From: an uncultured bacterium
GTDB lineage: Bacteria; Acidobacteriota; Thermoanaerobaculia; Multivoradales; JAHZIX01
Direction: 5' to 3'
Assembly: GCA_965368975.1 (NCBI GenBank)
Contig: CBDUPA010000026.1
Coordinates: 5,488-69,487, forward strand
Length of the DNA stretch: 64,000 nucleotides
Shown: one piece after another, positions 6,221 to 48,280 of the stretch
How positions within the stretch are numbered: position 1 is the first letter of the stretch
How the letters are laid out: each line of letters starts with the position of its first letter
The notes under the pieces: model-generated
The model's input: only the letters and a program-made list of their open reading frames with translations
What the model was told of the DNA's origin: nothing
Database searches by the model: none
Translations under genes and position numbers: made by a program

Positions 6221-6251
6221 GAAGAAACAAAGGTCCTGGGGTGCAGGACCT
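6221..6251 (-). terminator. Rho-independent terminator downstream of the small Cys-rich peptide gene
   Basis: On the minus strand: AGGTCCTG, a 5-nt loop, CAGGACCT, then TTGTTTCTTC. Confidence 0.65.
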
Positions 6252-6722: not shown

Positions 6723-8921
6723 TCACAGCCGGAACAGGTACGTCATCTTGACGATCACCTGGCGGTCGCGGGTTTCCAGGTCGGAGAAACTGGGGGAGTT
6801 CCAGTTCTCATTGTAGACCACGTAGAGGTCGGAACCGGGGCGGTAGGTCCAGCGCAGGCGCAGGTTGGCACCGAAGACTTCACTGACGCTGTTGTACTGC
6901 AGGATGCCGTTGAGCGACAGGTCCGGGGTGAACGATAGCTCCAGGCGCTGGCGCACGACATCGAAGTCGAAGTCGCCGACGGGCAGGCTGACGTCGCTGC
7001 GCACCCAGGTGGTCTCGGTACGGAAGTAGCGGGAGGCACGCACGCTGACGGAGGCTGTGAAGGCGGTGCTGGAGCCGTCGTAGAAGTCCCCGGCGGTGAG
7101 CTCGAGGAAGCCGAAAACGCGGCGGGCGTCGGAGGTGGACAGCTGGAAGCCGCCTTCCCACCAGTCGTAGTCACCGGCCGGCAGGGTGACGCCGGGGAAG
7201 ATCGGGAAGTCGTTCTGCAGGTTGTCTTCCTGGCGGCGGGCGAAGAAATGGAGCTCGTCTTCGGTATGCCAGCGCAGGCCGAAGAACTCGAGCTGGACCA
7301 GCGAGGTCTCGGTGCCGCCGCCGTCGCGCTCGTACTGTTCGGCGATCAGGCCGGAGCGGTAGTTGCGGATCCTGGGGTGGTCGACGGGGCGAGGCTCGTA
7401 GACGCCGGAGCCGCGGTAGCGGCGCACGCCGCGACGCAGCAGGAAGCCGGCATCGGGGTTGAAGTCCTTGCCGATGTCGATGGCGGAGAGCGAGAAGTCG
7501 TAGAGCGCGCTGTCGTAGTTGAAGCCGGCGCCGGCGTTCCAGGGCTCGTCTTCGTCGACCTCGGAATCGTCACTACGCGAGGCGAAGGCCCAGACGTTGG
7601 TTTCGTTGGTCGGCTTGAGATCGAGGTCGATACCGTAGACTTCGTTGAGATTGCCACCGTCGGTGTCACTGCGGGTGTAGATCATGCCGATGCTGGAGCG
7701 TTCTCCCAGGTTGCGCTTGACGCGCACGACGCCCCAGTCGTTTTCAGGGACGGGCGCGCCGTTCTGACTACCCAGACTGTCGGTGCGCACGTTCATCAGG
7801 CCGAGACTCCAGCCACCGGCGCGTCCGGTCAGGCGACCGCCGAAGTCGATCGGCACTTGACGCCCATCGTCCGAGATGCCGACACGACGCGAGAAGAAGA
7901 CCTTGAACAGCGGCACGTCGGCGAACGACGGGCCGAACTCGAAGATGCCGGCGCTCTCCAGGAAGAATTCCCGCTTCTCTTGAAAAAACAGTGGGAAGCG
8001 CGTCAGGTTCACCTGCTGGTCGTCGACTTCGGCTTCGGCGAAGTCGGTGTTGGCGGTGACGTCCAGCGTCAGGTCTTCGTTGATGCCCCATTTGAAGTCC
8101 AGGCCGGTTTCCCAATCCTCTTCCGAGCCGGTTCCGGCTTGCTTGCTGGAGGAGAAGCTGGCGTAGGGCTTGATCTCGATGTTGAGGCCGCGGCGGAGCT
8201 CGAAGGGGCCGAAGTGGCCACCCTTGGAGATGCGGAAGACGTTGTCTTCGAGCCCCAGCGGTGACCAGTACGTCTCTTCGTTCTTGCGCTTGATGATGCG
8301 CCGCACCTGCATGCCCCAGGTCTCGTTGTTGGGGTCGAAGCGCAGGGTGGAGAAGGGGATGGCGAATTCTGCCGACCAGCCCTCGTCCGAGATGTGAGTC
8401 TTGACGTCCCACACGGCACCGTCCCAGGAGACGTTGAAGTCGCGGCCTTCGTCGGTCAGCAGTGCGTCGGTACGGGCGCCGTTGGGATTGGTTTCGAAGA
8501 AGAAAGCGTTGCGGTGGTCGTGGAAGGTGTCGAGGAAGATGCCGATCGAATCGTCGCGGAAAAGGAAGGCATCGCGTTCCATCTCATTGGCGATGATCTC
8601 GGACGGCTCCGAGTCGTAGGCCATGATGCCGATGTAGAGATGGGTGTTGGTGAAGACCGCGCGGAGCACCGTGCGCTCCGTGGCCGGGGCGCCTACCTGG
8701 GGCTCGCGCTGGCGGAAGTCACCGGATGGCTCGGCCTGCTGCCAGGCGTCGTCGTCGAGGTGACCATCGACGCTGATGCTCTCGTCGATGAAGAGTGGCC
8801 GCAGCTCGGGGACGCTGGAAGCCTCGGTGTGCGCGGAGGCCGGAGCGGCCGCGCTCAGGCAGGCGGTGGCGGCCAGCAGGGTGCTGGCCAGCAGACGGTG
8901 GGAAGGTATCGGCGACAACAT
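6723..8921 (-). CDS. CBM9-like / DUF5916-family outer-membrane-associated protein
   Basis: Signal peptide, then VDGHLDDDAWQQAEP...FRQREP...HLYIGIMAYD...FFFETNPNGARTD...WSAEFAIPFSTLRF, the CBM9/DUF5916 pattern. A beta-rich C-terminal part ends in an aromatic-rich strand. The ATG at 8921 with GAGGAG RBS is preferred over the TTG at 8936. Confidence 0.75.
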   Translation of the reverse strand: MLSPIPSHRLLASTLLAATACLSAAAPASAHTEASSVPELRPLFIDESISVDGHLDDDAWQQAEPSGDFRQREPQVGAPATERTVLRAVFTNTHLYIGIMAYDSEPSEIIANEMERDAFLFRDDSIGIFLDTFHDHRNAFFFETNPNGARTDALLTDEGRDFNVSWDGAVWDVKTHISDEGWSAEFAIPFSTLRFDPNNETWGMQVRRIIKRKNEETYWSPLGLEDNVFRISKGGHFGPFELRRGLNIEIKPYASFSSSKQAGTGSEEDWETGLDFKWGINEDLTLDVTANTDFAEAEVDDQQVNLTRFPLFFQEKREFFLESAGIFEFGPSFADVPLFKVFFSRRVGISDDGRQVPIDFGGRLTGRAGGWSLGLMNVRTDSLGSQNGAPVPENDWGVVRVKRNLGERSSIGMIYTRSDTDGGNLNEVYGIDLDLKPTNETNVWAFASRSDDSEVDEDEPWNAGAGFNYDSALYDFSLSAIDIGKDFNPDAGFLLRRGVRRYRGSGVYEPRPVDHPRIRNYRSGLIAEQYERDGGGTETSLVQLEFFGLRWHTEDELHFFARRQEDNLQNDFPIFPGVTLPAGDYDWWEGGFQLSTSDARRVFGFLELTAGDFYDGSSTAFTASVSVRASRYFRTETTWVRSDVSLPVGDFDFDVVRQRLELSFTPDLSLNGILQYNSVSEVFGANLRLRWTYRPGSDLYVVYNENWNSPSFSDLETRDRQVIVKMTYLFRL

Positions 8922-8939
8922 CTTGACTCTCCTCAAGGA

Positions 8940-10349
8940 TCAGGAACGTCGGCGTAGCAAGCTCAGCAGCGCCAGTAGGGCGGCTCCGAGTCCCACGCCG
9001 CGCAGGATCTTCTCTTGTCTTTCCGCCCGGGCGACGGCATCGGCGTAGGGCATCGTGGTGTGGGCGACCAAGCCATAGAGGGGTTTCCACAGCTCTGGGA
9101 AGAGCCGATTCAACCACACGTCGGCCTTCTTGCGCAGCAGGAAGGGCAGTGAACGGAGGCGTTGGCTCAATTCCAGGAAGTTTTGCTTCGACAATTCAGC
9201 CAGCGTGTCCGTGTGGACTTTGCGGCTCAGCTGGAACTGGTGGAACAGAGCGCGCCAATCGAGATCGAATTCGGTGGCGCCGCCTCGGCACCCCAGCAGA
9301 GCTTCTTGCAGGAGGTCGTCGAGCACGACACAGTCTTCGAGCGCAGCGTTCATGCCCTGGCCGAAGAAGGGATAGACCGCGTGCACGGCGTCGCCGATCA
9401 GCACTGCCCAGTCCTCGTGATACCAGGGCGCGGTGCGCACGGTGACCAGCCGGCCGACGGGATGGCTGAAGAACTGTTCGGTCAGCTCGGGCATCAGGGG
9501 CAGCAGATCTGGGAAGTAGGCTTCGAACAGCTCGCGTACGGCCTCGGGTGTCTGAATGTCGTCGAAGCAGAAGCGGCCGTCCTCACGCGCGACGGGCATG
9601 AAGAGCGTGACGGTGTGCGAGCCGTCGCGGTTCGAGTGAGTGACGATCAGAGCGTCACCGCGCGGCCACACGTGCAGGGCGTCGAGCTGAATCTGCGAGC
9701 TGCCGTCGCGGGCCGCGGGTAGGGTCAGTTCCTTGTAGCCCCAAGGAAGGTATTCCTGGTGGAAGTTCGCGCGAATGCCGGCGTGCAGGTGCTGGCGGAC
9801 CACGGAGAAGGCGCCGTCGGCACCAATGAGCAGGTCCGCGTGCACCTTGTGCTCGGTCTCTTGATCCTGGTCGAGAAATGTCAGGGTGCGGGCGTCTTTG
9901 TCCAACTCGACGCAGCGCTGGCGGAAGTGGAAGCGGATCTGACCCGTGGCTTCGGCGGCGTCCAGCAGCACGCGGTTCAGCTCGGTGCGGTCGATCGAGT
10001 TGAGTGCTTCGCTCGGGTTCTTGCCGTAGGCATGGTAGGTGACGCTGCCGTCGAGGGCATGGACGGCGCGCCCGTGCATGACAACGGCACGGTCGAGCAT
10101 GTGCTGGTCGAGACCCGCGCGGCGCAGCGCGCGCAGGCCACGGGCGGTCAGGCCGAGGTTGATCGAGCGGCCGGCCATGCCGCCGGTCTGCCGTAGGTCG
10201 CCGCGGCGCTCGTAGACGTCGACCTGGAAGCCGGCGCGTGCCAGGTAGATCGACACCATCGAGCCGGCCAGGCCGGCTCCGACGACCACGACTGTCGGTC
10301 GTGCCGACGTGGAGGCGGCCTGTTCGTGAGGAGGCTGTGAGGTGGACAT
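8940..10349 (-). CDS. kmo: Kynurenine 3-monooxygenase (FAD-dependent)
   Basis: Matches KMO signatures recalled from the human enzyme: GAGLAGS...DVYERR, GRSINLGLTARG, GADGAFSVVR, YLPWGYKELT, LHVWPR, VTLFMP, IGDAVHAVYPFFGQGMNAALEDC. A C-terminal hydrophobic helix is present. Confidence 0.88.
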   Translation of the reverse strand: MSTSQPPHEQAASTSARPTVVVVGAGLAGSMVSIYLARAGFQVDVYERRGDLRQTGGMAGRSINLGLTARGLRALRRAGLDQHMLDRAVVMHGRAVHALDGSVTYHAYGKNPSEALNSIDRTELNRVLLDAAEATGQIRFHFRQRCVELDKDARTLTFLDQDQETEHKVHADLLIGADGAFSVVRQHLHAGIRANFHQEYLPWGYKELTLPAARDGSSQIQLDALHVWPRGDALIVTHSNRDGSHTVTLFMPVAREDGRFCFDDIQTPEAVRELFEAYFPDLLPLMPELTEQFFSHPVGRLVTVRTAPWYHEDWAVLIGDAVHAVYPFFGQGMNAALEDCVVLDDLLQEALLGCRGGATEFDLDWRALFHQFQLSRKVHTDTLAELSKQNFLELSQRLRSLPFLLRKKADVWLNRLFPELWKPLYGLVAHTTMPYADAVARAERQEKILRGVGLGAALLALLSLLRRRS

Positions 10350-10385
10350 GGGCCAGGATCTCCGAGGGAATCGCGCTCGGGCGCG

Positions 10386-11501
10386 TCAGTGTGGCCGCCG
10401 GGCCACGAGTAGGTGGTCACCGGTCGATTCGAGTACCGTGCAGGTCTCGATCTGCAGGCCGCTCTGTTCGAGCCAGCCGCGGACCTCGGCCAGGGTGTAG
10501 GTGCGCCCGCCCAGCAGATGGAAGAGGTTGAGGCGAAAGATGCGATGGAAGGCTTCGGCGACGGCGGGCAGTTCGGGCCGCTCCTCGCCCGCGAGCTGTT
10601 CGAGCACGACCAGCCGGCCTCCCGGCCGCAGCAGGGTACGCACCCGGCGTAGCAACTCCAGGTTGGTTTCCGCGGGAAAACTGTGCACGATGCTCAGTAG
10701 ATACGCGACGTCGTAGCCGTCGCTGCTGGCGGACGCGTCGTCCCTGAGGTCGTCCTCCAGGAAGTTGGCTGCCCGGAACTCGACGCGCTCGGCCAGACCC
10801 GCGGCTTCGGCGTTCTCGCGCGCGACTTCCAGCGAGCTGGGTAGATCGACGACGGTGGCAGTGGCGCCCTCAATGCGGCGGCAGAAGGCCAGGGCGTGAC
10901 GTCCGTGGCCACCACCGATATCGATCAGCCGCGGTGGCTGATTTGCCGTCGAGGTCGAGACGTCCAACTGCAGATGCTCCAGAATCTCGTCGCCGTTGAG
11001 TTCCGCCAGTTGCCCGAGCATGGTCTGGAACACACGCTGCGCCGCCGGTCGCTCGTCGAGCCAGCTGTAGAGATGCAGTCCGGGCTGGCCACTCCGGATG
11101 GTCCCTTCGAGGTCGTGCCACAGCTCGAACAGCTGCAGTGACCAGAACTCGACGACGGCGGTGAAGTCGAAGCCCTCGCCTTCTGGGGGCCGCAGCCAGC
11201 GACGGGCAGCTTCGCTCAGGGTCCAGATCGGGTCCGGTTGCTGGGCTTCCAACTGTTGGGCATACCCGAAGCTCTCCAGTGCTTCGAGCAGGAAGCCGGT
11301 GGCGGCGGGATCCGTGTCCAGGCGCGCCGCCAGCTCGGTGGCGGGGGCGTCGCCCTCGGCCAGAGCTTCGAACAGGCCCAGGCGCAGCGCTGCCGCGGCG
11401 GCACGGAAACCGGCGGTGGCGAGCAGGTCGAGCTGCGGCGCCGGGGCATCGGCACTGTCGAAGAAGGCTCGGGTTTCTTCGTCGCTGAGACGGATCGGCA
11501 T
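10386..11501 (-). CDS. Class I SAM-dependent O-methyltransferase (family 2, with N-terminal dimerisation domain)
   Basis: LIDIGGGHGRHALAF SAM motif with the overall length and layout of COMT/TcmO-like enzymes. GAGGAG RBS upstream. Confidence 0.8.
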   Translation of the reverse strand: MPIRLSDEETRAFFDSADAPAPQLDLLATAGFRAAAAALRLGLFEALAEGDAPATELAARLDTDPAATGFLLEALESFGYAQQLEAQQPDPIWTLSEAARRWLRPPEGEGFDFTAVVEFWSLQLFELWHDLEGTIRSGQPGLHLYSWLDERPAAQRVFQTMLGQLAELNGDEILEHLQLDVSTSTANQPPRLIDIGGGHGRHALAFCRRIEGATATVVDLPSSLEVARENAEAAGLAERVEFRAANFLEDDLRDDASASSDGYDVAYLLSIVHSFPAETNLELLRRVRTLLRPGGRLVVLEQLAGEERPELPAVAEAFHRIFRLNLFHLLGGRTYTLAEVRGWLEQSGLQIETCTVLESTGDHLLVARRPH

Positions 11502-11516
11502 GTCGACTCCTCGGCT

Positions 11517-12341
11517 TCAGATCTCTGCGGCGTCCGATGGGAGCGGCGGTCTTGCTGGTGGTATTTCCTGCGGAGCCAGACCTCGTAGCTCGATCTCGGC
11601 TTCCACCAGGGCGTCGATGGCACGGTCGAGACGCTGCTCAGAGACGGACTGACCGAGGCGCCGTAGGTAGGCGCGCAGGAAGCCGACTCGGGCACCCGCG
11701 GTGTCGCGGGGGCGCGAGAGGAAGGGTAGGTCGGTCTCCACCATGTGACGGATCACCAGCATGGGGATCGGACTGCGCAGCGGCCGGATCTTGTCGCTGC
11801 GCAGGCCCGGCGTCTGATTCTTGGCGTGGAACTCACCGAGCATCAGGCCGCAACGGGTGAAATCCTTTTTCAGCGTTGCCTGGACGCCGTCGATCAGTTC
11901 CGGCACGGCTGCTTCGTCGATGTCCGGGAACAGCATCAAGAGGGCCTTGTTGACTGACTCATCGCCGTAGCGTGGTTCCTGGTGCAAGAAGACGTCGCGG
12001 TACTGGCTGGCGATCTTGCCGACGTGCTCCGGCGCGGCGTCTGATTTCAGGTGGATGCACGTCAGGAACAACGAGTCGAGTTTCATCGCGATCGGCATGA
12101 AAGGACACACGGGGCCGGTGCGGCCGAGATCCGGGTGCGGCTGACACAGGAAGTCGCGCATCCAGGTGACGATGACGCACAGTGGCCCGAGATCCTCGGC
12201 GACGGGTTCTCCCGACTCGATCTGTGAGATGCGGTAGAGGGATGTCGGCGGCTGGGTAGCGTCATCTTCGCTGGGATTGCAGCCCTGGCGCAACGCGTCT
12301 TGCAGGCCCACGGCGGCGGGGGCGGTTGGTTTCTCGGTCAT
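11517..12341 (-). CDS. Conserved-looking protein of unknown function (BGC-embedded)
   Basis: 274-aa ORF whose start makes an ATGA overlap with the MFS gene stop. It contains GRTGPVCPFMP. I cannot assign a family by eye. Confidence 0.6.
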   Translation of the reverse strand: MTEKPTAPAAVGLQDALRQGCNPSEDDATQPPTSLYRISQIESGEPVAEDLGPLCVIVTWMRDFLCQPHPDLGRTGPVCPFMPIAMKLDSLFLTCIHLKSDAAPEHVGKIASQYRDVFLHQEPRYGDESVNKALLMLFPDIDEAAVPELIDGVQATLKKDFTRCGLMLGEFHAKNQTPGLRSDKIRPLRSPIPMLVIRHMVETDLPFLSRPRDTAGARVGFLRAYLRRLGQSVSEQRLDRAIDALVEAEIELRGLAPQEIPPARPPLPSDAAEI

Positions 12342-19700: not shown

Positions 19701-22700
19701 CGAGTGTTGCCAGACGGCGCTGGGCGTCCTCGGCTGTGTGTTCGGAGGTATCACCGGTGGCCAGGATCAGCTCACGCAGGTCGAGGCCGAGCAGTGGCTC
19801 GAGCAGCGCGCAGCCTTCGTCCAGCTGGCGGCGGAAGACCTCTTCGTTGGCGTACAGCTGGCGCGCCATGCCGGCATGCTGGGTGCCCTGTCCTGCGAAG
19901 AGAAACACCACGGACGGTGGGCTCGGCGGTAGCTGGCCGAGCTGGCGCGCGCGCGGAGTGAGACCCCGCAGCTGCTGCACCGCCTGCGCCGGATCAGCCG
20001 CATCGACGATGGTCGTCAGGCGATGCTCGAAGTCCTTGCGACCGCGGTGCAGGGTGAAGGCGATGTCGGCGAAGTCGAGGCCTGCTGGTGATGCCGGCTG
20101 TTCCTCGAGGTGCTGGGCCAGACTGGCAGCATTGGCTTCCAAGGCTGCGGCCGTGCGGGCCGACAGGCGCAGCAGTTGCATGGGGTGACCCGGCCTGTCT
20201 GCGGCGCTCTCGGAAGCTGCCTCTTCCAGGATCACATGCGCGTTGGTGCCGCCGATGCCGAAGGCCGAGACCGCGGCGCGGCGCGGCGTCTCGCCCGCCG
20301 GCCAGGGTCGCGCCTCGGCTGGCACGTAGAAGGGCGAATCTTCGAGGTCGAGTTCCGGGTTGGGTGTCTGGAAGTGCAGGTTGGGTGGGATCTGCCGGTG
20401 CTGCAACGACAGCGCGGCCCGGATCAGGCCACCGACGCCGGCCGCGGTGTCCATGTGGCCGACCTGCGTCTTGAACGACGACAGCGCGATCGACTGCTCC
20501 TCCACGTGGGTTTGCTGTGTGTACGCGCGACGCAGCGCGTCGACCTCGATCGGGTCGCCGAGCACGGTGCCGGTGCCGTGACACTCGACGTAGCCCAGGC
20601 TGGCCGGTGCCACGCCGGCCCGCTGCAACGCCTTGACGATCACCCGCGTCTGCCCCTCGATGCTGGGCGCCGTGTAGCCAACCTTGGCGTCGCCGTCGTT
20701 GTTGATCGCCGTGCCCTTGATCACGGCCACGATCGGGTCGCCGTCGGCGCGCGCGTCGGCCAGGCGCTTGAGCACCACCATGCCGGCGCCGCTCGACTCG
20801 ACGGTGCCGCCGGCACGGGCGTCGAAGGCGCGGCAGTGACCGTCCGGCGAGGCGATGCTGTCGGCCACGTGCAGGTAGCCGACGCCGTGCGGGATCTGCA
20901 GCGTGCAACCGCCCGCCAGCGCCATGTCGCAGTCGCCGGAGAGCAGGCTCTGGCACGCCAGGTGGACCGCCACCAGTGAGGTCGAGCAGGCGGTCTGCAC
21001 CGATACCGCCGGGCCGCGCAGGCCGAGCTTGTAGGCGACGCGCGTGGCGGTGAAGTCCGGGCCGGTGGCGATCATCGATTGCACTTCGCCCTGCTGGTGC
21101 AGGATCTCTGGCCGCGTCAGCAGGTGCTTGACCAGATAGCCCGGCCCGCCTATCCCGGCGAAGACGCCGACTTCGCCGGGATAGGTGTCGCCAGCCCAGC
21201 CGGCCCGTTCGAGCGCTTCCCAGGCGCACTCGAGCAGCAGGCGCTGCTGCGGGTCGGTGAGCGCGGCTTCGCGAGCCCCGAAGTCGAAGAAGGCTGCGTC
21301 GAAATCGCGGATGTGGTCGACCTTGGTCCCGGCCGGCACGTAGTCCGGGTCGTCCACCCGCGCCGGATCTTCGCCCGCTTGCAGCAACTGCTCGCGGTCG
21401 AAGCGCTCGATCGCCTCGACGCCGTCGGTGATGCACCGCCACAGCGCGTCGATGTCCGGGGCGTGCGGGAAGCGGCCGGCCACCGCGACGATGGCGATGT
21501 CACGCCCGCTCGCGCTACCTGCTGCCGCCGTCGGGTGCCGTTCTGGTAGGAGCTGTTCTGGTGAGTGGACGGGGCGAGCGGATGCCGACTTGTCTCCCCC
21601 CGGCGCGCCGAGGAACCCCGCCAGCCGTCGTACGGTCGTGTGTTGGAGCAAGTCCAGGATGCGCACGCGCGGCCAGCGCTGCTTGAGGCGCAAGTGCAGG
21701 CGCGGCAGCAGCAGCGAATGGCCGCCGAGGTCGAAGAAGTTCTTGTCCGCCGGCACCGCGTCGAGGCCGAGTACCTGCCGCCAGAGTTCGGCGACGAACG
21801 CCTCCGCCTCGTCGGCCGGTGGCGCTCCCGCGGCCGTCTCGTGCTGCTCGTCTGGCAGCGGTCGCAGTGCCAGCGCCTTGCGGTCGATCTTGCCATTGGG
21901 GGTCAGCGGTAGTTCGTCGAGGCGGTCGAAGACCGCCGGCATCATGTAGCCGGGCAGGCGGGCGGCGGCGAAATCGCGCAGATCGGCGTCGGAGACGGTG
22001 GTCCCCGCTCCCGCGATGACATAGGCCACCAACCGCTGTCCGCGCACCAGCACTGCCGCCCCCGTCACCGATGGATGACGGCGCAGCGCGGCTTCGACTT
22101 CCCCCAGCTCGATGCGATACCCGTGCAGCTTGACTTGGTGGTCCAGTCGGCCGAGGAGCTCCAGCTCGCCATCGGCCCGCCAGCGAGCGCGGTCACCGGT
22201 GCGATAGAGCCGCTGACCGGCCTTGCCGAAGGGATCGGGCAAGTAACGCTCGGCGGTCAGGCCGGGCCGGCCGAGGTAGGCGCGTGTCACGCCCTCGCCC
22301 GCCAGCATCAGCTCGCCGAGGACGCCGATGGGCACCGCCTCGCCGCGCGCGTCGAGCACGTGGACCTGGGTGTTGTCGATTGGACCACCGATCGTCGGCT
22401 CGGCGTCACGGCCGCGCGATAGCAGCTTGCCCGATAGCAGCTTGCCCGGCACCAGCGAATACGTCGAGTAGGTGGTGTCCTCGGAAGGACCATAGAGGTT
22501 GTAGACCTTCACCGCCTTCGATGCCGCGTACACCTGGTCGACCAGCGCCCGCCGCAGGGGTTCGCCGGCCAGGTTGATCACCCGTGCGGAGTCTGGGATG
22601 CCTTCGGCGGCGGCGAGCTCGGCGATGGCCGAGGGCACGGTGTTGAGCAGCGTGACGCGCTCGCGGGCGGGGTGTTCGAGCAGATGCAGCGCGTCGCGAG

Positions 22701-25700
22701 CCAGGATCACCGTGCCGCCTTGGGTCAGCGGCAGGAACAGCTCGTAGATCGACAGGTCGAAGCACACCGAGGTCACTGCCGCCACGCCCGCCAGCTCGTC
22801 CGGCGGGAAGATACGCGCCGCCCAAGTCAGCATGGCGACGGCGTTGCGGTGGCTGATCTCGACACCTTTGGGGCGGCCGGTCGAGCCGGAGGTATAGATG
22901 AAGTAGGCGCGCTGCCGCGGGTCGACGCGGGACGCTGCCGGGGCTGCCGCTGCGTCTGCTGTCGGCGCCGCGAGGTCCAGCTCGTCGAGGAACAGCAGTT
23001 CTGGCCCCTTGGCCGTTTCGTCGGAGGGCTTGTCGACCAGCTCATCGAACAAATGGGCCAGCGCGCGGTCGGTGAGCACGCGTCGAGCACGCGTGTCCTG
23101 CACCATGAAGGCGAGGCGCTGCGGTGGGTAGGTGGGGTCGAGGGGCAGGTAGCTGCCACCCGCTTCCAGCACCGCCAGCAGGGCGACGACCAGTTCGGGC
23201 GTGCGCGGCAGGCAGACCGCCACCGCCTCCTCGGGCGCCACGCCGCGCCGACGCAGTAGCGCGGCCAGTCGGTGTACCCGCTGCCACAGCTGGGCGTAGG
23301 CCAGGGTCTCGACCGCCTCGGAGGTTCCTCCGGAGGTCCCCTCGGCGACTCCTTCGGCGATCAGCGCCGTCTGCGCTGGCGTCTGTGCCGCCTGCTGGGC
23401 CACCAGAGCGTGCAGCGTCACATCGGGCGGCAGCGGGCGCTCGGTGCGGTTGACCAGGTCGATCAGCTGGCGGTCGGCGGCCGGTACCAGCGGTAGTCGC
23501 CAAAGCGGCAGTTCGGGGTGGTCGAGCACGCCCTGGAGCAGCAGTCGATAGGCCTCGAACAGGCGTTCGATGGTGGTGGCGTCGAACAGTGCGGTGGCGT
23601 ACTCGACGGACACGCGCAATCCCTCGGCGCGGTCGAAGATGGTCACTTCGACGTCGAACTTGGCCGTGCCGCTGTGGCCGTGGAGCGGGCGCTGGTCGAG
23701 CCCGGGAAGCGACGGGGCCAGTTCCATCGCCAGCACCTGGAACAGCACCTGGAAGAACGGCGTGCGTGCGGCATCGCGCGTCGGTTCGAGCTCCTGCACC
23801 AGCCGCTCGAAGGGCAGCGCCTGGTGGATCTGCGCTCCCACCACCGTCTGGCGCGTGTTGGCCAGCAGATCGGCGAAAGTGCGGTTGCCATGCTCTGCAG
23901 CGGCCAGGTCGAGGCGCAGTACCAGGGTGTTGGCGAACAGGCCCACCAGGTTCTCGAACTCGGTGCGGTAGCGGCCGGCCGACGGCGTGCCTACAGCCAG
24001 GTCGTGGTGGCCGCTGAAGCGTGCGAAGAGGACGTAGAAGGCAGCGAGAAGTGCCGTGAACAGCGTCTCACCGTGCTGGCGGGCGAGGCCACGCAGGCCC
24101 TCGGACAGCTCGCCGGGCAGGGTCACTACATGCAGTGCGCCGTCCGCCTGCTGCACCCTCGGCCGTGGTCGGTCCGCGGGCAGGTCGGCCGGCTCCAGAC
24201 CATCGAGCTGACGGCGCCAGTAGGTCACCAGTCGCTGCTGCTCGGCTTCCTCCAGCCAGCTCGCCTGCCAGGCGGCGAAGTCGGCGTACTGCAGCTCGGG
24301 CTCGGGTAGCGGTGACGCTTGCCCCTGGTGGAAGACGTTGTAGAGCTGCGACATCTCCTTGGCGATCAGGTCCTGCGACCAGCCGTCCGTGGCGATGTGG
24401 TGGATGTTGAGGATCAAGACGTGCAGCTCGGCACCTGCCCTCAGCAGACGCGTGCGCCATACCGCGTCGTGCTCCAGGTCGAAGGGCGCGCCGGCTTCTC
24501 GCGCCACCAAGTCCCTGGACTTGCGCTGGCGGTCGGCGTCCTGGAGGCCGCTCAGGTCGACGATCTCGAGGTGCCAGGGCCGTGGCGGATCGACCAGCGC
24601 CACCGGCTCGCCGTCGCGACTGCCGTAGCGCGTGCGCAGCACGGCATGGCGGCGGGCGACATCGGCCAGGGCGCGGTCGAGGGCCTGGATGTCGAGGGCA
24701 CCGTGTAGCTCGAAGGCGGAAGGGATGTTGTAGAGCGCCGAACTCAGCTCCAGCTGGTGTAGGAACCACAGTCGCCGCTGGCCGAAGGAGAGCGGTGCTG
24801 GCCGCGTCGGGTCGAGGCGCGGAATCGGTGGCAGCGCCGCCGCCGTCGAGGTGCCGGCCGCCTGGACCTCTTGGATGCGCCGCGCCAGCGCGGCGACGGT
24901 GGGGTGCTCGAAGATCTCGTGCAGCGACAGTTCCAGGCCCAGGATGTCGCGCACGCGAGCCAGCAGCTGGGTAGCCAGCAGCGAGTGACCACCGAGGGCG
25001 AAGAAGCTGGTCTCGACGCCCACCCGCTCGGCGCCCAGCACCTCGCACCATAGCGCCGCGATTTGTCGCTCGAGATCGTTGCGCGGCTCGACCAACTCAG
25101 CCTCGCTGACGCCAGCGTGTTCGAAGTCGAAGGCCGGCAGGGCTCGCCGATCGACCTTGCCATTGGCGTTCAATGGCAGTTCATGAAGGAACTGGAAGCC
25201 GGTGGGGACCAGGTACTCCGGCATGCTCTGCCCGAGGAACGACCGCAGCTCTTCGACGCTCGGTGCCGCGACCTCGGCTCCAATCACGACGAAGGCCACC
25301 AGCCGCTTGGAGCCTCGGCCGTCGTCCTGCATCACCACCGCCCGCTCCTTGATCGCCGGGTGCTGACCCAGCTGCGCCTCGATCTCACCCAGCTCGACGC
25401 GGAAGCCGCGCACCTTCACCTGGTGGTCGATGCGGCCGATGTAGTCCAGCACCCCGCTGGGTAGCCAGCGCACCAGGTCGCCGGTGCGGTAGACGCGCGC
25501 GCCAGGCTGCTCGTGACCCACGCGTGCCGAGCAGGGATGGGGGATGAAGACGCCCGCGGTCAGCGCCGGTCGCCGGTGGTAGCCCTGCGCCAGACCGGGG
25601 CCACCGACCACCAGCTCGCCCGCTGCACCAATTGGTGCCGGCCGTTGCCAGCGGTCGAGCACCAGTACCTCGGTGTTGCCGACCGGCTCGCCGATCGGTA

Positions 25701-27486
25701 CCGACGTCGCGCCCGGCGGCACCTCCGGTACCCGGTAGCAAGTGGTGAAGGTGGTCGCTTCGGTCGGGCCGTAGCCGTTGATGTGCACCGTCGGACCTTG
25801 GGCCATCGACGCGCGCACGGCGTCCGGATCGCAGCGCTCGCCGCCGAACATGAGCGTGCCGACGTGGGCCAGCAGGTCCGGCACCTGGCGCGCATACTGG
25901 TGGAACAGCGACGCCGTCAGCCACAGCACGGTCGGTCGCAGGCGCTCGAGGGCCGTGCGCAAGCGCTCGGCGGACAGCAGCGTCTCGCGCTCGATACCCA
26001 GGAGGTGGCCGCCGTGCAGCAGTGAGCCCCAGAGTTCCAGTGTGGCGACGTCGAACGAGGTGTTGGACGCCTGTACGATGCGCTCCTCGGGGCCAAACTC
26101 GTAGTAACGGCCGCCGAACACCAGGCGCACGACGGCTCGTTGCGGAATTACCACACCCTTCGGCCGGCCGGTCGAGCCCGAGGTGTAGATCACATACGCT
26201 GGGTACTCCGGGCCGACGCGCGGTAGTGGTGGTTCTTCCTGAGAGGCTAGTTCGCCCTCAGCAACTGGCGCCGTGAACAATTCTTCGTCGACATACAGCA
26301 CGCGGCAGCCCTGCGCCGCCAGCTCGTCGAGCGGCAAGCGTGCCGCCTGCACCTTGTCGGTGATCAACACCGGCGTCGCGGTGTCTTCGGCCATCCACAC
26401 CAGTCGCTCGGCTGGATAGGCGGGGTCCAGCGGTGCGTACGCCGCGCCCGCCAAGATGATCGCCACGAAGCTGGTGATCAGCTCTGGCGAGCGTTCCAGG
26501 CAGACCGCCACCAGGTCGCCCGGTCGCACGCCGTGCGCGCGCAGATGGTGCGCCAGGCAGCGCGCTCGCTCGTCCAGTTGCCGGTAGTTCAGACACACTT
26601 CGCCGTAGCTCACCGCCGGCCGTTCCGGGTACGTCTCGACGGCGTGCTGGAACAGCTCCGTGAGACCGCGGTCGAGCGGTGCCTGCGTGCGCGCCGCACC
26701 GTTCCAGGCGTCGAGCAACTGCCACTGGCCGTCGCTCACCATCTCGAGCTCCGTCAGTCGCGACGACGGCGTCGCCGCCACGGCCGCGAGCAAGCGGGCA
26801 AAGCTCGCCAGCAGGTTCTCGATCGTCGCGGGATCGAAGAGCTCGCTCTCGTAGACGGCGCTCAGATAAGGCTCGGTGTCCGAGACCGTCACCAGCGTTA
26901 CCGCCAGATCGTGCGCAACCGGCACCGTGGTTTCACGATCGACGCCGCGGTGCTCGAACAAGACCTCGGTGAACGGATTTCTTGTCCCAGCGTGGGCCTC
27001 TGGTCGCAACGCGGAGACCAGGTCTGACCACGGAACCGCCTGCTCACGAGTCTTCCGTGCGAGGGTCCGAACGTGTGTGAGCAACTGGGCGAAGCTTGGC
27101 TGCCCGCCGACTTCGGCCGGGACCTCGACCGGGACCTCGACCGGGACCTCGACCGGGGCTGCCGTCAGCTGCACACGCACGACGGTCAGGTCGTCGTGCA
27201 TCCACCCTACCGCCAGGTCCGTATGCCCTGTCAAGCGGCTGAGCCAAGCCGAGAACGCGGCGAGGCCCGCGACTGACAGATCTGGGTCCAGGTCTCGTAG
27301 CCGCTCGATCAGCGCCGCCGACAACGCACGAACTTGCCGTCCCGGTTTGCCTAGGGACGTCTTCGTTCGCGTCCGGTCGATCGGCAACTCCAAGCGTCCC
27401 GGCTCGGCGCCCGCTAGGCGGTCACGCCAAGCTTCGATCAGTTCCGCCTCGGGTTCACTGCGGCCGCTTGGTTGACTCGGTGGCAT
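13735..27486 (-). CDS. Hybrid NRPS-PKS megasynthase: (truncated C)-A-T-C-A-T-KS-AT-T-C-A-T-R
   Basis: Core motifs in order: A (YVIYTSGSTGRPKGV), T (FFALGGHSLLA), C (HHIATDGWS), A (YFIYTSGSTGRPKGV), T (FFDLGGHSLL), KS (TACSTSLVAVH/ECHGTGT), AT (GHSLGE), T (FLDLGGHSLLA), C (HHSILDGWS), A (YVITTSGSTGRPKGV), T (FFAAGGSSLLA), R (VTGGTGFLG, YEQSK). The ATG at 27486 is preceded by AAGGAA. The ORF-track start is 27525. Confidence 0.95.
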   Translation of the reverse strand: MPPSQPSGRSEPEAELIEAWRDRLAGAEPGRLELPIDRTRTKTSLGKPGRQVRALSAALIERLRDLDPDLSVAGLAAFSAWLSRLTGHTDLAVGWMHDDLTVVRVQLTAAPVEVPVEVPVEVPAEVGGQPSFAQLLTHVRTLARKTREQAVPWSDLVSALRPEAHAGTRNPFTEVLFEHRGVDRETTVPVAHDLAVTLVTVSDTEPYLSAVYESELFDPATIENLLASFARLLAAVAATPSSRLTELEMVSDGQWQLLDAWNGAARTQAPLDRGLTELFQHAVETYPERPAVSYGEVCLNYRQLDERARCLAHHLRAHGVRPGDLVAVCLERSPELITSFVAIILAGAAYAPLDPAYPAERLVWMAEDTATPVLITDKVQAARLPLDELAAQGCRVLYVDEELFTAPVAEGELASQEEPPLPRVGPEYPAYVIYTSGSTGRPKGVVIPQRAVVRLVFGGRYYEFGPEERIVQASNTSFDVATLELWGSLLHGGHLLGIERETLLSAERLRTALERLRPTVLWLTASLFHQYARQVPDLLAHVGTLMFGGERCDPDAVRASMAQGPTVHINGYGPTEATTFTTCYRVPEVPPGATSVPIGEPVGNTEVLVLDRWQRPAPIGAAGELVVGGPGLAQGYHRRPALTAGVFIPHPCSARVGHEQPGARVYRTGDLVRWLPSGVLDYIGRIDHQVKVRGFRVELGEIEAQLGQHPAIKERAVVMQDDGRGSKRLVAFVVIGAEVAAPSVEELRSFLGQSMPEYLVPTGFQFLHELPLNANGKVDRRALPAFDFEHAGVSEAELVEPRNDLERQIAALWCEVLGAERVGVETSFFALGGHSLLATQLLARVRDILGLELSLHEIFEHPTVAALARRIQEVQAAGTSTAAALPPIPRLDPTRPAPLSFGQRRLWFLHQLELSSALYNIPSAFELHGALDIQALDRALADVARRHAVLRTRYGSRDGEPVALVDPPRPWHLEIVDLSGLQDADRQRKSRDLVAREAGAPFDLEHDAVWRTRLLRAGAELHVLILNIHHIATDGWSQDLIAKEMSQLYNVFHQGQASPLPEPELQYADFAAWQASWLEEAEQQRLVTYWRRQLDGLEPADLPADRPRPRVQQADGALHVVTLPGELSEGLRGLARQHGETLFTALLAAFYVLFARFSGHHDLAVGTPSAGRYRTEFENLVGLFANTLVLRLDLAAAEHGNRTFADLLANTRQTVVGAQIHQALPFERLVQELEPTRDAARTPFFQVLFQVLAMELAPSLPGLDQRPLHGHSGTAKFDVEVTIFDRAEGLRVSVEYATALFDATTIERLFEAYRLLLQGVLDHPELPLWRLPLVPAADRQLIDLVNRTERPLPPDVTLHALVAQQAAQTPAQTALIAEGVAEGTSGGTSEAVETLAYAQLWQRVHRLAALLRRRGVAPEEAVAVCLPRTPELVVALLAVLEAGGSYLPLDPTYPPQRLAFMVQDTRARRVLTDRALAHLFDELVDKPSDETAKGPELLFLDELDLAAPTADAAAAPAASRVDPRQRAYFIYTSGSTGRPKGVEISHRNAVAMLTWAARIFPPDELAGVAAVTSVCFDLSIYELFLPLTQGGTVILARDALHLLEHPARERVTLLNTVPSAIAELAAAEGIPDSARVINLAGEPLRRALVDQVYAASKAVKVYNLYGPSEDTTYSTYSLVPGKLLSGKLLSRGRDAEPTIGGPIDNTQVHVLDARGEAVPIGVLGELMLAGEGVTRAYLGRPGLTAERYLPDPFGKAGQRLYRTGDRARWRADGELELLGRLDHQVKLHGYRIELGEVEAALRRHPSVTGAAVLVRGQRLVAYVIAGAGTTVSDADLRDFAAARLPGYMMPAVFDRLDELPLTPNGKIDRKALALRPLPDEQHETAAGAPPADEAEAFVAELWRQVLGLDAVPADKNFFDLGGHSLLLPRLHLRLKQRWPRVRILDLLQHTTVRRLAGFLGAPGGDKSASARPVHSPEQLLPERHPTAAAGSASGRDIAIVAVAGRFPHAPDIDALWRCITDGVEAIERFDREQLLQAGEDPARVDDPDYVPAGTKVDHIRDFDAAFFDFGAREAALTDPQQRLLLECAWEALERAGWAGDTYPGEVGVFAGIGGPGYLVKHLLTRPEILHQQGEVQSMIATGPDFTATRVAYKLGLRGPAVSVQTACSTSLVAVHLACQSLLSGDCDMALAGGCTLQIPHGVGYLHVADSIASPDGHCRAFDARAGGTVESSGAGMVVLKRLADARADGDPIVAVIKGTAINNDGDAKVGYTAPSIEGQTRVIVKALQRAGVAPASLGYVECHGTGTVLGDPIEVDALRRAYTQQTHVEEQSIALSSFKTQVGHMDTAAGVGGLIRAALSLQHRQIPPNLHFQTPNPELDLEDSPFYVPAEARPWPAGETPRRAAVSAFGIGGTNAHVILEEAASESAADRPGHPMQLLRLSARTAAALEANAASLAQHLEEQPASPAGLDFADIAFTLHRGRKDFEHRLTTIVDAADPAQAVQQLRGLTPRARQLGQLPPSPPSVVFLFAGQGTQHAGMARQLYANEEVFRRQLDEGCALLEPLLGLDLRELILATGDTSEHTAEDAQRRLATLDLGQPALFLVEYALAQLWQSWGIEPRAMLGHSLGELVAATLAGVFERDTALRLVAARGRLMAATPTGAMLAVTRPAAEVEARLRETGMAETLSLATVNSPSDCVVAGTVAAIEAFETTLAAEEIETRRLHLTTAAHSLLMEPILDAYRAEVEHAAPKTPERPFVSCITGRWIEPAEAASIDYWTRHLRHAVRFGDSLQRLFELHQSEPGGIVLLELGPGHTLSTLVRRNESQGTNHPVIRTLPHPRDETSDLAQVLEAVGRLWLLGVDVDPNTFWAGQERRRVVLPTYPFERQRCWIEPGRRGATTPGMVPAEDAAPGSVGPGHVGPGPAEPARTPDAVPLGGTTAAVADAWRELLGLETVDPDAEFLDLGGHSLLATQLAHLLRRRFGVEVRATEILGKAPTVAEQAALIDARRPMTGELAPAPRSQPLPLSDSQERLWLLAQLGADGDGDGGSAAYNLPVVLHLHGRLDAGALRRALAELARRHEVLRTAFVLDDGKPVQRIEEPGPVELPVIDLRRIRGAETFVRQQTLRDLARPMDLARAPLWRARLWHVREEAADDDESKSKSQEACYLGLTMHHSILDGWSGRVLFRDLAALYSQQSGTDDTAAARLPELPIQYADYAVWQRRRLDEAGKASAPGQDGLAPQLEYWRRQLAGAPPILELPLDHARPSVHSFRGRRLTFSVPGSVLAGLRTLARQAKATMFPVVLAAFQLLLARWSGQWDVCVGTPVANREEPRTQELIGFFVNTVVLRTVIDPNSDFARLVARVKEVVTGGFANQELPFERLVSELRPQRDAGVNPLFQVMLVFHNTPPVGDDFAGIPFEMLEPDSETSHFDLTLSLEEQAPQAGTKEGNGQLAGLIDFSTDLFETDTIERLIDGFQTLLAAVASQADGIDVAALPVMSPAEATRVVVEWNATTVDWRQSLAVPEATPHDCLHDLVLRQATRRPHAIAVEAADGRLSYGHLVRHARALAARLRRTGVAPGDLVGLALPGSCNAMVAIVAIHLAGAAYLPLDPGAPAERQRQILEDNGCRVLIGTARLTGYKGRLVPPRGHSAPATPLPTSSSAGFSPDYPAYVITTSGSTGRPKGVAVSHRSAVNLAYAFVQHHGLRETHRFLAIPPLHFDASVGDLFPAWAAGACLIFHPAPGRLTGDRLDRFCTRRRVSVIDTAVALWKAWLDDWLVSQKLASQGRARNRQLVLPDLEVMMVGGEAVNTHQLATWAQLASPRARVFNHYGPTEATVCATSYPTRDGSEVTRPALPIGAPLPNVRVYVLDTHLRPQPASVAGELCLGGAGIALGYLRLPARTAEVFVPDPFARGEGSSPVGGNPGGRLYRTGDLARWLPVRSGEHATSTQGVLEFLGRRDRQVKIRGFRIELGEIEATLQRHPEVASAVVVAFGEGAAAQLVGYVVAKSTETTPPALDTLRTFLADHLPAYMVPSTIVPLEVLPLTPNGKVDLRALPAPTVGTAEPVTPRTPLEAQLLEIWRELLSAPQLGVEDDFFAAGGSSLLAMQLASRMQLELLLEIPLTKLFEATTVAAFARVVEALRAGETQTLDLRARAVLDPAIQPRESRPGQPRPEKDRPTGTGVLVTGGTGFLGAYLIDELLRARNGDIYILVRADTIEAGRQRIQRNLEAYDLWSDIESRGDAGRKDAARLVPVLGDLSQPRLGLDAAAFARLAAQLGELHHNAAAVDFVRPYSALEAINVHGTEEVLRLASLDGARPVHFVSTLGLFLQPAYEGTTVTEDDAPSPDGLDKGYEQSKWVAEQLCEQARERGLPVNILRPARVSGAASSGAANTQDLFYSWIKGCVQLGLAPDIAHAIDLMPVDYLAKAIVCLAADLATDLDSGNLGTGTLGRAYHFYNRRTLPFRELARWVNVHVQPLRLVPYGEWVTALRSAVAAQQENALASFLALFGDTLEEDRQPTFEQHHSQARLQAAGLVCPPADDTLLTTYFDYLERTGFLRRTRPETPRLKLPPLKTSVPPA
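22417..22446. repeat. In-frame 15-bp tandem duplication inside NRPS adenylation domain 2
   Basis: CGATAGCAGCTTGCC occurs twice in tandem and encodes GKLLSGKLLS. Confidence 0.9.
27121..27156. repeat. 12-bp x3 in-frame tandem repeat in the NRPS N-terminal region
   Basis: GACCTCGACCGG occurs three times and encodes the PVEVPVEVPVEV part of PVEVPVEVPVEVPAEV. Confidence 0.9.
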
Positions 27487-27816
27487 CGGGTTCCTTTTCA
27501 AGGCAACAGCACAAATCAACCGCAAGGCAGCGCTTAGGCTGCCACGGTACTCGTTGCCCTGTGACCTGGCGACTGTGTTCAGTCTTTAGTGAAGAGGAAC
27601 CCGGATGTCCTGTGATCAGAGCATGCAGACGCTCGGGAGACGACCTTCGCCGAGCCCAAGCTGAGAGGTCCAGTATAGACCAGCTTCGATTTCGAGTGGT
27701 TGGGTTAGTACTGAGGTGCTCACGGTAAAGGTCTTCGCGCGGACTCTGTCTGGTTGTCGCGTCGGTGGCCGGCGCGTGATCGCGGATCTCGCTGAAGTAG
27801 TCGGCGGTCCGAGTGA

Positions 27817-30803: not shown

Positions 30804-33197
<2,394 letters not shown>

Positions 33198-33299
33198 GGT
33201 GTTCTCCGGTTCGAGTTGGATGGTGCTCCGACGGGGCGGAGGAGTGAGCGTATAGGAAAGCGTCGGTGAGGGGCAAAGGTTCTGCGGTAGGGTGATGGT

Positions 33300-42730: not shown

Positions 42731-42836
42731 ATCTGCTTCTCCAAACGAGTTCGACAGAGAAAAGTTGCAGGCTGATCAGCTTTCGCGCGTCAACTGGCCT
42801 GGGTCGGTGGCCGCGAGCGAGTACAATACCCGTCCC

Positions 42837-48273: not shown

Positions 48274-48280
48274 TACCGTG

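Follow-up and report, generated by a model that had tools for sequence, protein, structure and literature searches.

The window considered here is a stretch of 64,000 nucleotides from an uncultured acidobacterium (Thermoanaerobaculia; Multivoradales; JAHZIX01), taken from contig CBDUPA010000026.1 of assembly GCA_965368975.1 (positions 5,488 to 69,487 of the forward strand), and its main element is a six-gene operon on the minus strand. The operon encodes a hybrid nonribosomal peptide synthetase-polyketide synthase (NRPS-PKS), an exporter of the major facilitator superfamily (MFS), a 274-aa heme enzyme of the DUF6875 family, or cytochrome P422, an O-methyltransferase (OMT), a flavoenzyme of the kynurenine 3-monooxygenase (KMO) family and a protein with CBM9 and DUF5916 domains. 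The reading favored here, with a probability of about 0.55, is that the assembly line would join a Val-like residue, alanine, a malonyl unit and an oxidized tryptophan, the last being selected by the third adenylation domain (A3) after oxidation by P422 and the flavoenzyme, and that the chain would be released reductively.

The Operon and Its Genes

The genes of the operon, in order of transcription, are the following:

13735 to 27525, minus strand: megasynthase open reading frame (ORF) as called, 13.8 kb
13735 to 27486, minus strand: hybrid NRPS-PKS megasynthase of 4,583 aa (Pfam, start codon, motifs)
12338 to 13738, minus strand: MFS exporter of the EntS/MFS_3 type (Pfam), with a start that overlaps the synthetase stop (ATGA)
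11517 to 12341, minus strand: DUF6875/cytochrome P422 thiolate-heme enzyme, predicted L-Trp N1-hydroxylase (PF21780 and motifs)
10386 to 11501, minus strand: class I S-adenosylmethionine-dependent OMT with a dimerization domain (Pfam, solved relatives)
8940 to 10349, minus strand: KMO-family class A flavin monooxygenase with a noncanonical ring pocket (alignment to KMOs)
6723 to 8921, minus strand: CBM9-like sandwich and large beta-barrel (DUF5916), predicted secreted outer-membrane protein (Pfam, model)

Translation of the synthetase probably begins with the ATG at 27486, which is preceded by AAGGAA. ATGA overlaps join the synthetase to the MFS gene (13735-13738) and the latter to the 274-aa gene (12338-12341); then 15 nt with GAGGAG precede the OMT gene, a gap of 36 nt precedes the flavoenzyme gene, and 18 nt, again with GAGGAG, precede the ATG of the DUF5916 gene at 8921. 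An earlier note, made from the letters of the window, had described a compact and translationally coupled hybrid operon with these same overlaps and gaps; ORF, Pfam domains and junctions all bear this out, and the domain spans given there match the Pfam-based ones to within a few tens of nucleotides. As for the accessory genes, the Pfam matches are MFS_1/MFS_3, DUF6875, Methyltransf_2 with its dimerization domain, FAD_binding_3, and CBM9_1 with DUF5916; none of these genes reached any family cut-off in the NCBIfam scan.

A scan for sigma-70 promoters found none upstream of the synthetase, and the sole terminator-like hairpin near the end of the operon is a weak one at 6231-6251 (8-bp, GC-rich, with a T-rich tail on both strands), placed in the gap that separates the DUF5916 gene from its neighbor, which encodes a PPC-domain protein (4331-6145). 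The limits of the operon are set by gene spacing alone.

Organization of the Assembly Line

The synthetase contains three Condensation, three AMP-binding (with their C-terminal domains) and four PP-binding matches, a ketosynthase (KS; N, C and linker parts), one Acyl_transf_1 and one NAD_binding_4, with no ketoreductase (KR), dehydratase (DH) or enoylreductase (ER) found by Pfam. With C for condensation, A for adenylation, T for carrier, AT for acyltransferase and R for reductase, the order is (half-C)-A1-T1-C2-A2-T2-KS-AT-T3-C3-A3-T4-R:

26671 to 27486, minus strand: truncated C domain, C-terminal lobe only (PF00668 profile positions 198-454 of 456)
25126 to 26670, minus strand: A1, DVLWMGGTFK, predicted Val-type small aliphatic (code 8/10 against Val codes)
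24841 to 25098, minus strand: T1 carrier, LGGHSL (Pfam, motif)
23431 to 24828, minus strand: C2, standard condensation, HHIATDG (PF00668, 332 bits, full length)
21826 to 23418, minus strand: A2, DLYNNALTYK, predicted alanine (code, solved relatives)
21571 to 21813, minus strand: T2 carrier, LGGHSL (Pfam, motif)
20326 to 21528, minus strand: KS, Cys-His-His intact in TACS, HGTGT and VGH (Pfam, motifs)
18856 to 19938, minus strand: AT, GHSLG and Arg, specificity motif TAAH (Pfam, motifs)
18436 to 18678, minus strand: T3 (acyl carrier protein, ACP), with no KR, DH or ER between AT and T3 (Pfam)
16996 to 18408, minus strand: C3, standard condensation, HHSILDG, acceptor of a beta-ketoacyl donor (PF00668, motif)
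15346 to 16968, minus strand: A3, DAGDMGHVCK, proposed loader of oxidized tryptophan (MAFFT code)
15046 to 15288, minus strand: T4 carrier, GGSSL (Pfam, motif)
13738 to 14958, minus strand: R, terminal thioester reductase, GGTGFLG and YEQSK (PF07993, 218 bits)

Regarding the N-terminus, the first C piece has no HHxxxDG motif; as an incomplete domain without the His motif it also differs from a starter (lipo-initiation) C domain, and it is, judged by its sequence, catalytically dead, so that the N-terminus of the product is probably a free amine. A low-complexity insert, PVEVPVEVPVEVPAEV (PVEV), lies within this remnant at about 27112-27165 on the minus strand. C2 is a standard condensation domain, as the earlier note had read it: it carries HHIATDG, and the cyclization motif DxxxxD is absent from the whole synthetase.

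The PKS part is a minimal type I module, with the Cys-His-His triad of the KS, GHSxG and Arg in the AT, the ACP serine, and no KR, DH or ER; the retained beta-keto unit proposed before thus agrees with the domain content. Malonyl is the most likely extender, although this is uncertain given the TAAH motif of the AT: the orthologous domain in a related locus (L090, see below), 57% identical, has the canonical malonyl motif HAFH, and TAAH may indicate a different extender or a relaxed site. At the end of the line, the R domain has both the Rossmann motif GxxGxxG (GGTGFLG) and the catalytic YxxxK (YEQSK), and its closest solved relative is the R domain of myxalamid MxaA (257 bits); on these motifs and this match it is judged competent, and the reductive release already anticipated for this line stands.

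Substrate Selection by the Adenylation Domains

The specificity codes were extracted from a MAFFT alignment to GrsA-PheA, whose sequence was checked against 1AMU, and they reproduce letter for letter those read by hand in the earlier note: DVLWMGGTFK for A1, DLYNNALTYK for A2 and DAGDMGHVCK for A3. In a compendium of 2,051 characterized bacterial A domains, DLYNNALTYK is Ala(17), the most frequent alanine code, found in 73 A domains (PMC12283262 Table S6); cysteine codes follow DLYN[L/M/W][S/A]L[I/V]WK and have only the first four residues in common with Ala domains (PMC12283262). The code of A2 is 9/10 identical to that of McyA2 of microcystin synthetase, DLFNNALTYK, for which alanine was both predicted and observed (PMC3640908 Table 2), and McyA2 activates L-Ala in vitro (bioRxiv 10.1101/2023.11.13.566838). 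Among single domains of known structure, McyA2 again comes closest to A2 (PDB 8jbr, 445 bits, versus 230 bits for the Cys-activating BmdB). A2 has N299, A301, T330 and Y331 and lacks the Cys half of the code; on code and structural relatives, it is an alanine domain.

The earlier note had instead taken A2 as Cys-activating and had seen an anomaly in a Cys domain placed behind a noncyclizing C domain. The exact Ala(17) code, the likeness to McyA2 and the low BmdB score refute this assignment, which rested on a mistaken Cys code; since A2 is an Ala domain, a standard C2 is what its module should have, and the paradox is gone.

The codes of A1 and A3 had both been reported as unmatched. For A1 this no longer holds, since the code is 8/10 identical to the valine codes DVFWIGGTFK and DVFWLGGTFK (PMC12283262 Table S5). 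It does hold for A3: DAGDMGHVCK is not among the codes tabulated in print for Trp and Phe, nor among those Tyr codes that were compared, and the best match in these tables is 6/10, for instance with Lysobacter WAPS2 (DAGLVGEVWK). The A3 code follows the Trp pattern in that residue 239 is small, residue 322 is polar and both G301 and V330 are present; unusual in it are the polar residues D278 and H322. Because A1 and A2 are both aliphatic, A3 is the sole entry for an aromatic residue, and the chemistry of P422 and of the flavoenzyme must converge on it.

The P422 Heme Enzyme

The 274-aa protein, previously listed as unknown, belongs to the DUF6875/cytochrome P422 family, an assignment that rests on Pfam and on all four published motifs: it scores 192.5 bits against PF21780 (cut-off 24.5), it has the heme motif RxGxVCP as RTGPVCP, with Cys79 as the axial ligand, and it has the substrate motifs Rx(M/L)x3Dx2F, Dx2(Q/H)x3K and MxGxF as RHMVETDLPF, DGVQATLK and MLGEF, respectively. 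The family was renamed in a preprint of December 2025; it comprises heme enzymes with a thiolate ligand whose substrate is free L-Trp, hydroxylated at N1, C6 or C7, and about half of its members occur in NRPS clusters whose products are undiscovered (bioRxiv 10.64898/2025.12.11.692455).

Its nearest named relatives are from Lysobacter and Rugamonas. 1-Hydroxy-Trp was made in vitro by Lc584 from Lysobacter capsici AZ78, by Ls910 and Ls950 from Lysobacter, and by Rr391 from Rugamonas rubra (suppl. Table 5, bioRxiv 10.64898/2025.12.11.692455). The L. capsici AZ78 protein was equated with Lc584 by strain and by its length of 271 aa, and it clusters, at 90% identity or more, with the P422 of one of the related loci described below (L001); Rr391 was found by accession. 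The SBR1 and SBR3 motifs of the window protein, RHMVETDLPF and MLGEF, are identical to those of the AZ78 protein, and the P422 authors linked these two regions to regioselectivity (bioRxiv 10.64898/2025.12.11.692455). The order [C-A-T-R]-MFS-P422-flavin monooxygenase (FMO) is also common to the window and to the loci of the assayed relatives. The window P422 is therefore predicted, by its motifs and its neighborhood, to hydroxylate L-Trp at N1. A PDB sequence search with the protein returned no solved relative.

The KMO-Family Flavoenzyme

The flavoenzyme aligns over its full length, KMO C-terminal domain included, with the KMOs of Pseudomonas fluorescens (PfKMO) and rat (281-285 bits); PfKMO reaches 285 bits, and the next family 59 bits. 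Its residues are given here in PfKMO numbering, with a +1 offset corrected, and the roles of the substrate contacts are those of the PfKMO-L-Kyn structure papers (PMC5477544, PMC6376250); the alignment excludes the sequence from locus L005, which was in the wrong frame. The amino-acid anchors R84, Y98, N369 and Y404, which bind the alpha-carboxylate and amine, are kept in the window enzyme and in every related cassette enzyme, as are L213, F238, P318, F319 and G321. The canonical ring pocket (A56, I106, L213, I224, L226, F238, M373) is instead changed at five positions in all of them: A56G, I106L, I224V, L226H and M373L. PfKMO and rat KMO are 37% identical to each other, each is 37-39% identical to the window enzyme, and both have the same residues at the five changed sites.

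An exhaustive search covered 1.84 billion representatives; among the 150 best from the family, about 80 had a pocket that agreed exactly with canonical KMO and only two had the pocket signature of the cassette enzymes, the next nearest being other noncanonical pockets. When the 119 closest 90% clusters are compared, all but three (116) have the signature NGRYLELVHTFPF[Y/F]GNLY, and the three have close variants of it. Automated annotation of this subfamily is split: NCBI names it a generic FAD-dependent oxidoreductase and JGI a KMO.

As for the genetic context, genes for tryptophan 2,3-dioxygenase (TDO), kynurenine formamidase and kynureninase are missing both from the window and from the 12 related loci, and the enzyme has no association with genes of the kynurenine pathway or of NAD metabolism there. 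Hence, the description of this protein as a clear KMO is right for the family and the conserved anchors, and fails for the ring pocket and the gene neighborhood; with the same remodeled pocket, the same missing genes and a Trp hydroxylase gene that had been overlooked, the 3-hydroxykynurenine building block deduced from it becomes doubtful. We conclude that this would be an enzyme derived from KMO that acts on a free amino acid bearing another ring system, and the product of P422 is the obvious candidate for its substrate.

The protein ends (8940-9000, minus strand) in the hydrophobic helix GVGLGAALLALLSLLRRRS; in this it resembles eukaryotic KMO with its membrane anchor and differs from PfKMO, which is soluble. 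A Lysobacter P422-FMO fusion protein has the same tail.

A Conserved Cassette in Other Genomes

Besides the window, 12 loci, labeled with L numbers and gathered through P422 and through the flavoenzyme, contain the unit of [A-T-R], MFS_3-type pump, P422 and KMO-like gene; the terminal C-A-T-R was seen wherever the recovered contig covered it. They come from two Lysobacter species representatives, Lysobacter enzymogenes, L. capsici, metagenome-assembled genomes (MAGs) of Thermoanaerobaculia and other Acidobacteriota, and metagenome contigs, and the genes outside the unit vary between loci. The terminal A domain is retained in 11 of the 12, always with the code DAGDMGHVCK (12/12 clusters when the window is counted), even though these domains are only 41-52% identical to A3.

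The preceding module is specific for Gly in six NRPS-only clusters; the code DILQLG[L/M/V]VWK precedes the terminal residue in L001, L002, L004, L005, L006 and L009, and the Gly module of L090 feeds a KS. Since either Gly or malonate precedes in each case, the terminal residue always follows a -CH2-CO- unit.

The flavoenzyme gene lies beside P422 or an NRPS in 12 of the 13 clusters, and contexts gathered from the flavoenzyme side contain P422 or an NRPS again. The exception is L090, an Acidobacteriota MAG locus with A-T-KS-AT-T-C-A-T-R, MFS, P422, OMT and DUF5916 (52-75% identity per part to the window). That this locus is without the flavoenzyme was considered and rejected, as another contig of this MAG (L092) carries the gene, immediately ahead of an NRPS gene whose first domain is an A domain with an Ala code. 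In L008, from a close relative of the window, the cluster is nearly identical. This synteny supports the placement of flavoenzyme and OMT in the cluster, and not in NAD metabolism, as the earlier note had also proposed.

Some variants of the unit deserve mention. P0415, a protein of 711 aa from a Lysobacter MAG, is an in-frame fusion of a P422 domain (RSGPVCP) with the KMO-like flavoenzyme, and it is either a natural Rosetta-stone fusion or the result of a stop codon lost in the MAG. In L. enzymogenes (L006/L007, 12.5-14.4 kb) the cassette is followed by a PF00756 esterase, of a family that includes siderophore esterases, and by an AraC regulator, whereas in L093 an MbtH gene sits between the MFS and P422 genes.

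Exporter, O-Methyltransferase and Outer-Membrane Barrel

The MFS gene lies beside the R-domain gene in the related loci as well. The OMT occurs in only four clusters (window, L008, L090 and L093) and is absent from the Lysobacter loci; its closest solved relatives are weak matches, MfnG with 68 bits and SibL, a 3-hydroxykynurenine methyltransferase, with 56 bits. Because the OMT is optional while the A3 code is constant, methylation probably follows loading or leaves recognition unaffected.

The DUF5916 protein has a Sec signal peptide, and its AlphaFold2 model, made with the use of database homologues, consists of a CBM9-like sandwich and then a large beta-barrel (pLDDT 83, pTM 0.81). Foldseek matched the barrel only to generic barrels of the outer membrane, with low TM-scores (LptD, TonB-dependent receptors, AlgE, MtrB), and the first part to a CBM-like domain (TM 0.74); a PDB sequence search found no solved relative. 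The gene is a repeated companion of the cassette in loci of the Acidobacteriota type: it is beside it in L008, L090, L091 (on the opposite strand) and L094, with 30-59% identity in L090, L091 and L094. A reasonable, if tentative, reading is that the barrel may be an outer-membrane conduit that partners the MFS pump.

Proposed Pathway and Alternatives

What the sequence itself shows is the order of the modules, the loss of the first C domain, alanine as the residue of module 2, a beta-keto group left unreduced, a complete set of reductase motifs and coupling to export; the remaining steps are inferred. In the pathway proposed here, A1-T1 loads the starter, which would be Val-like, module 2 adds alanine, and the minimal KS-AT-ACP module adds one C2 unit, presumably from malonyl, with its beta-keto group retained. 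Module 4 then adds the residue selected by A3, which would be L-Trp oxidized as the free amino acid: by analogy with the characterized relatives found in the same cassette, P422 would act at N1, and the flavoenzyme could add a second oxidation, either at C7, ortho to the nitrogen as in the geometry of KMO, or at C2, in the manner of VioC, to give an N-hydroxy-oxindole. The OMT would probably methylate a new hydroxyl, late or with no effect on recognition. Finally, the NAD(P)H-dependent R domain would free the chain as an aldehyde or alcohol, by a two- or a four-electron reduction, the EntS-type pump, translationally coupled to the synthetase, would export it, and the DUF5916 barrel may carry it across the outer membrane. 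The resulting skeleton would be Val-like–Ala–CO-CH2-CO–(oxidized Trp)-al/ol, and it could cyclize spontaneously, through an amine-ketone condensation to a pyrazinone or a Knoevenagel reaction to a pyrrolinone. More specifically, it is conceivable, though somewhat short of an even chance, that the cassette makes and incorporates an undescribed doubly oxidized Trp, such as 1,7-dihydroxy-Trp or N-hydroxy-oxindolylalanine (a cyclic hydroxamate), which in the window is also O-methylated.

However, it should be noted that several points weigh against this pathway. All of its support is non-biochemical; the window P422 is only 43-47% identical over its full length (about 50% in local BLASTP) to the assayed N1-hydroxylases, and its family also includes C6- and C7-hydroxylases (bioRxiv 10.64898/2025.12.11.692455); DAGDMGHVCK lacks any characterized counterpart. 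Most pocket residues of KMO are kept in the flavoenzyme, and a kynurenine-type substrate supplied through a housekeeping TDO would be compatible with them. With more than 7,500 homologues, DUF5916 proteins abound in Acidobacteriota, and their adjacency may be due in part to chance.

Other readings can be set against the oxidized-tryptophan pathway. The one in which a kynurenine enters the line is unlikely but has substance: housekeeping TDO and formamidase would act on Trp, or on Trp hydroxylated by P422, a KMO-like C3 hydroxylation would follow, and A3 would load a (di)hydroxy- or N-hydroxy-kynurenine, perhaps O-methylated. The KMO fold with its C-terminal domain, the four anchors and most of the ring-pocket residues are consistent with it, hydroxy-Trp can enter the kynurenine pathway through TDO (bioRxiv 10.64898/2025.12.11.692455), and the JGI annotation of the subfamily agrees, while that of NCBI does not. 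Yet TDO, formamidase and kynureninase occur in 0 of the 13 clusters, when the P422 family is often colocalized with TDO and kynureninase and its C7-hydroxylase subclade is found in clusters that contain TDO or an NRPS (bioRxiv 10.64898/2025.12.11.692455); the five fixed changes of the pocket, L226H included, point to a different ring system; and a C7-hydroxylating P422 would make the KMO redundant, while the nearest assayed relatives are N1-hydroxylases. The scheme of the earlier note, aa1–Cys–(C2 beta-keto)–aa3 with a Cys-activating A2 and with KMO and OMT supplying an O-methylated 3-hydroxykynurenine-derived residue, is far less probable still. It can point to the DLYN that A2 has in common with Cys codes (DLYN[LM]SLIWK), to the clear KMO family of the flavoenzyme and to the weak similarity of the OMT to SibL. 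Against these, A2 has the commonest Ala code and lacks the residues that define Cys ([L/M]299, S301, I/V330 and W331), Cys-activating solved domains score far lower than McyA2, and the hydroxykynurenine part meets the same obstacles as above, namely no TDO or formamidase nearby, changes at five otherwise invariant pocket positions and a Trp hydroxylase in the operon.

It is also rather improbable that A3 loads plain L-Trp or 1-hydroxy-Trp and that flavoenzyme and OMT act after assembly, on the carrier-bound or the released product. Many class A flavoenzymes tailor assembled indole scaffolds, and the A3 code is the same with or without the OMT; but the flavoenzyme keeps R84, Y98, N369 and Y404, which would be needless for a peptide substrate, and the A3 code, with its unusual D278 and H322, is at most 6/10 identical to the listed Trp codes. 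Hardly any weight is given to the view that the flavoenzyme and DUF5916 genes are unrelated neighbors from primary metabolism or envelope biology. The abundance of DUF5916 in Acidobacteriota irrespective of context would fit with it, and L008 is so closely related that the shared synteny is not independent; nevertheless, the flavoenzyme stands by P422 or an NRPS in nearly all clusters, across two phyla, with varied gene orders and one fusion, DUF5916 recurs in four other loci with differing arrangements, and the intergenic gaps are of 18-36 nt with ribosome-binding sites.

Other Genes in the Window

Just upstream of the cluster, 30804-33407 on the minus strand encodes a glutaminyl-tRNA synthetase fused to a C-terminal GatB/YqeY domain, and an ABC-F ATPase (28817-30784) lies immediately downstream of that gene; both are probably housekeeping. 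The synthetase GlnRS shares no more than 63% identity with any species representative, with Acidobacteriota as the best hits, and this places the source in an uncultured lineage. Several ORFs of great length (675-1,045 aa or more) that lack a Pfam match but have a GC3 like that of coding sequence occupy 33838-41578 (minus), 46429-51319 (plus) and 51376-53400 (minus). Around 36.4-41.0 kb two long ORFs overlap in different frames, suggestive of a frameshift or of nested calls. On the plus strand, 42765-46419 contains a UbiA-family prenyltransferase and then a 908-aa fusion of MFS and spermidine-synthase-like domains, 58366-59373 encodes a MerR-family regulator with B12-binding domains that resembles the CarH-type light-responsive regulator, and 1005-1433, near the start of the window, encodes a PIN-domain protein, possibly the toxin of a toxin-antitoxin pair.

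Significance and Comparison with Known Systems

The discoverers of P422 predicted undiscovered nonribosomal peptides with N1-hydroxy-Trp and named none (bioRxiv 10.64898/2025.12.11.692455); the window and its related loci make this prediction concrete and testable in the form of a fixed gene cassette. DAGDMGHVCK, an invariant and previously unlisted A-domain code, offers a handle for genome mining, and the partner flavoenzyme, obligate in the cassette, is mislabeled as KMO by automated pipelines. The presence of the cassette in genetically tractable Lysobacter means that its chemistry could be solved there and transferred to the uncultured acidobacterial NRPS-PKS variant. In addition, the false anomaly of a Cys module behind a noncyclizing C domain, which would have misdirected effort, is removed. 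If the doubly oxidized Trp is correct, DAGDMGHVCK would be the first A-domain code for N1-oxygenated tryptophan and the flavoenzyme the first KMO-type enzyme repurposed for an intact indole amino acid, within a family of products found widely among soil Acidobacteriota and Lysobacter.

The full-text literature searches, including one on Lysobacter, kynurenine and NRPS, found no characterized cluster with like gene content, in agreement with the earlier note, which had matched none; MIBiG was not queried. The closest full analogue of the window is the Acidobacteriota MAG with L090 and L092. The P422 NRPS clusters of L. capsici, L. enzymogenes and R. rubra share C-A(DAGDMGHVCK)-T-R, the MFS exporter, P422 and the KMO-like FMO; these are pure NRPS clusters in which a Gly module precedes that of the last residue and in which OMT and DUF5916 are absent. 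Unlike them, the window has a KS-AT-ACP module, the OMT and the outer-membrane barrel.

As for single components, the KMOs of P. fluorescens and of rat and human (EC 1.14.13.9) are about 38% identical over the full length to the window flavoenzyme. VioC of the violacein pathway is its best NCBIfam match, with 208 bits, far below the cut-off of 760; VioC is related to KMO and oxidizes the indole ring at C2, on a substrate that is not an amino acid. Module 2 of McyA is of the Ala type like A2, but A2 is not followed by an epimerase and feeds a KS rather than a C domain.

Among known pathways, those that build units derived from 3-hydroxykynurenine, for actinomycin, for the pyrrolobenzodiazepines sibiromycin and tomaymycin and for quinolobactin, bring together an oxygenase of the Trp ring, a methyltransferase and an NRPS, and the pyrrolobenzodiazepines also have reductive release. 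TDO, formamidase and/or kynureninase are encoded within their clusters, and the acids loaded are anthranilate or of the quinaldate type. The window has neither these enzymes nor such acid loading. A precedent for NRPS use of an N1-oxygenated and O-methylated Trp is the N-methoxy-L-tryptophan of the fungal apicidins (PMC11343938); these differ from the window in being fungal cyclic tetrapeptides made by other enzymes and without reductive release. Myxalamid MxaA, aureusimine AusA and the fungal PKS-NRPS PsoA are lines with reductive release, and their module order and substrates differ from those of the window. With regard to the cyclization, which is here hypothetical, the beta-ketoamide and aldehyde resemble those of fungal pyrrolinone formation, and the free dipeptidyl amine and carbonyl those of pyrazinone formation. 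In conclusion, the window appears to hold a familiar kind of NRPS-PKS hybrid built around a widespread, uncharacterized terminal cassette, with a heme enzyme described in 2025.

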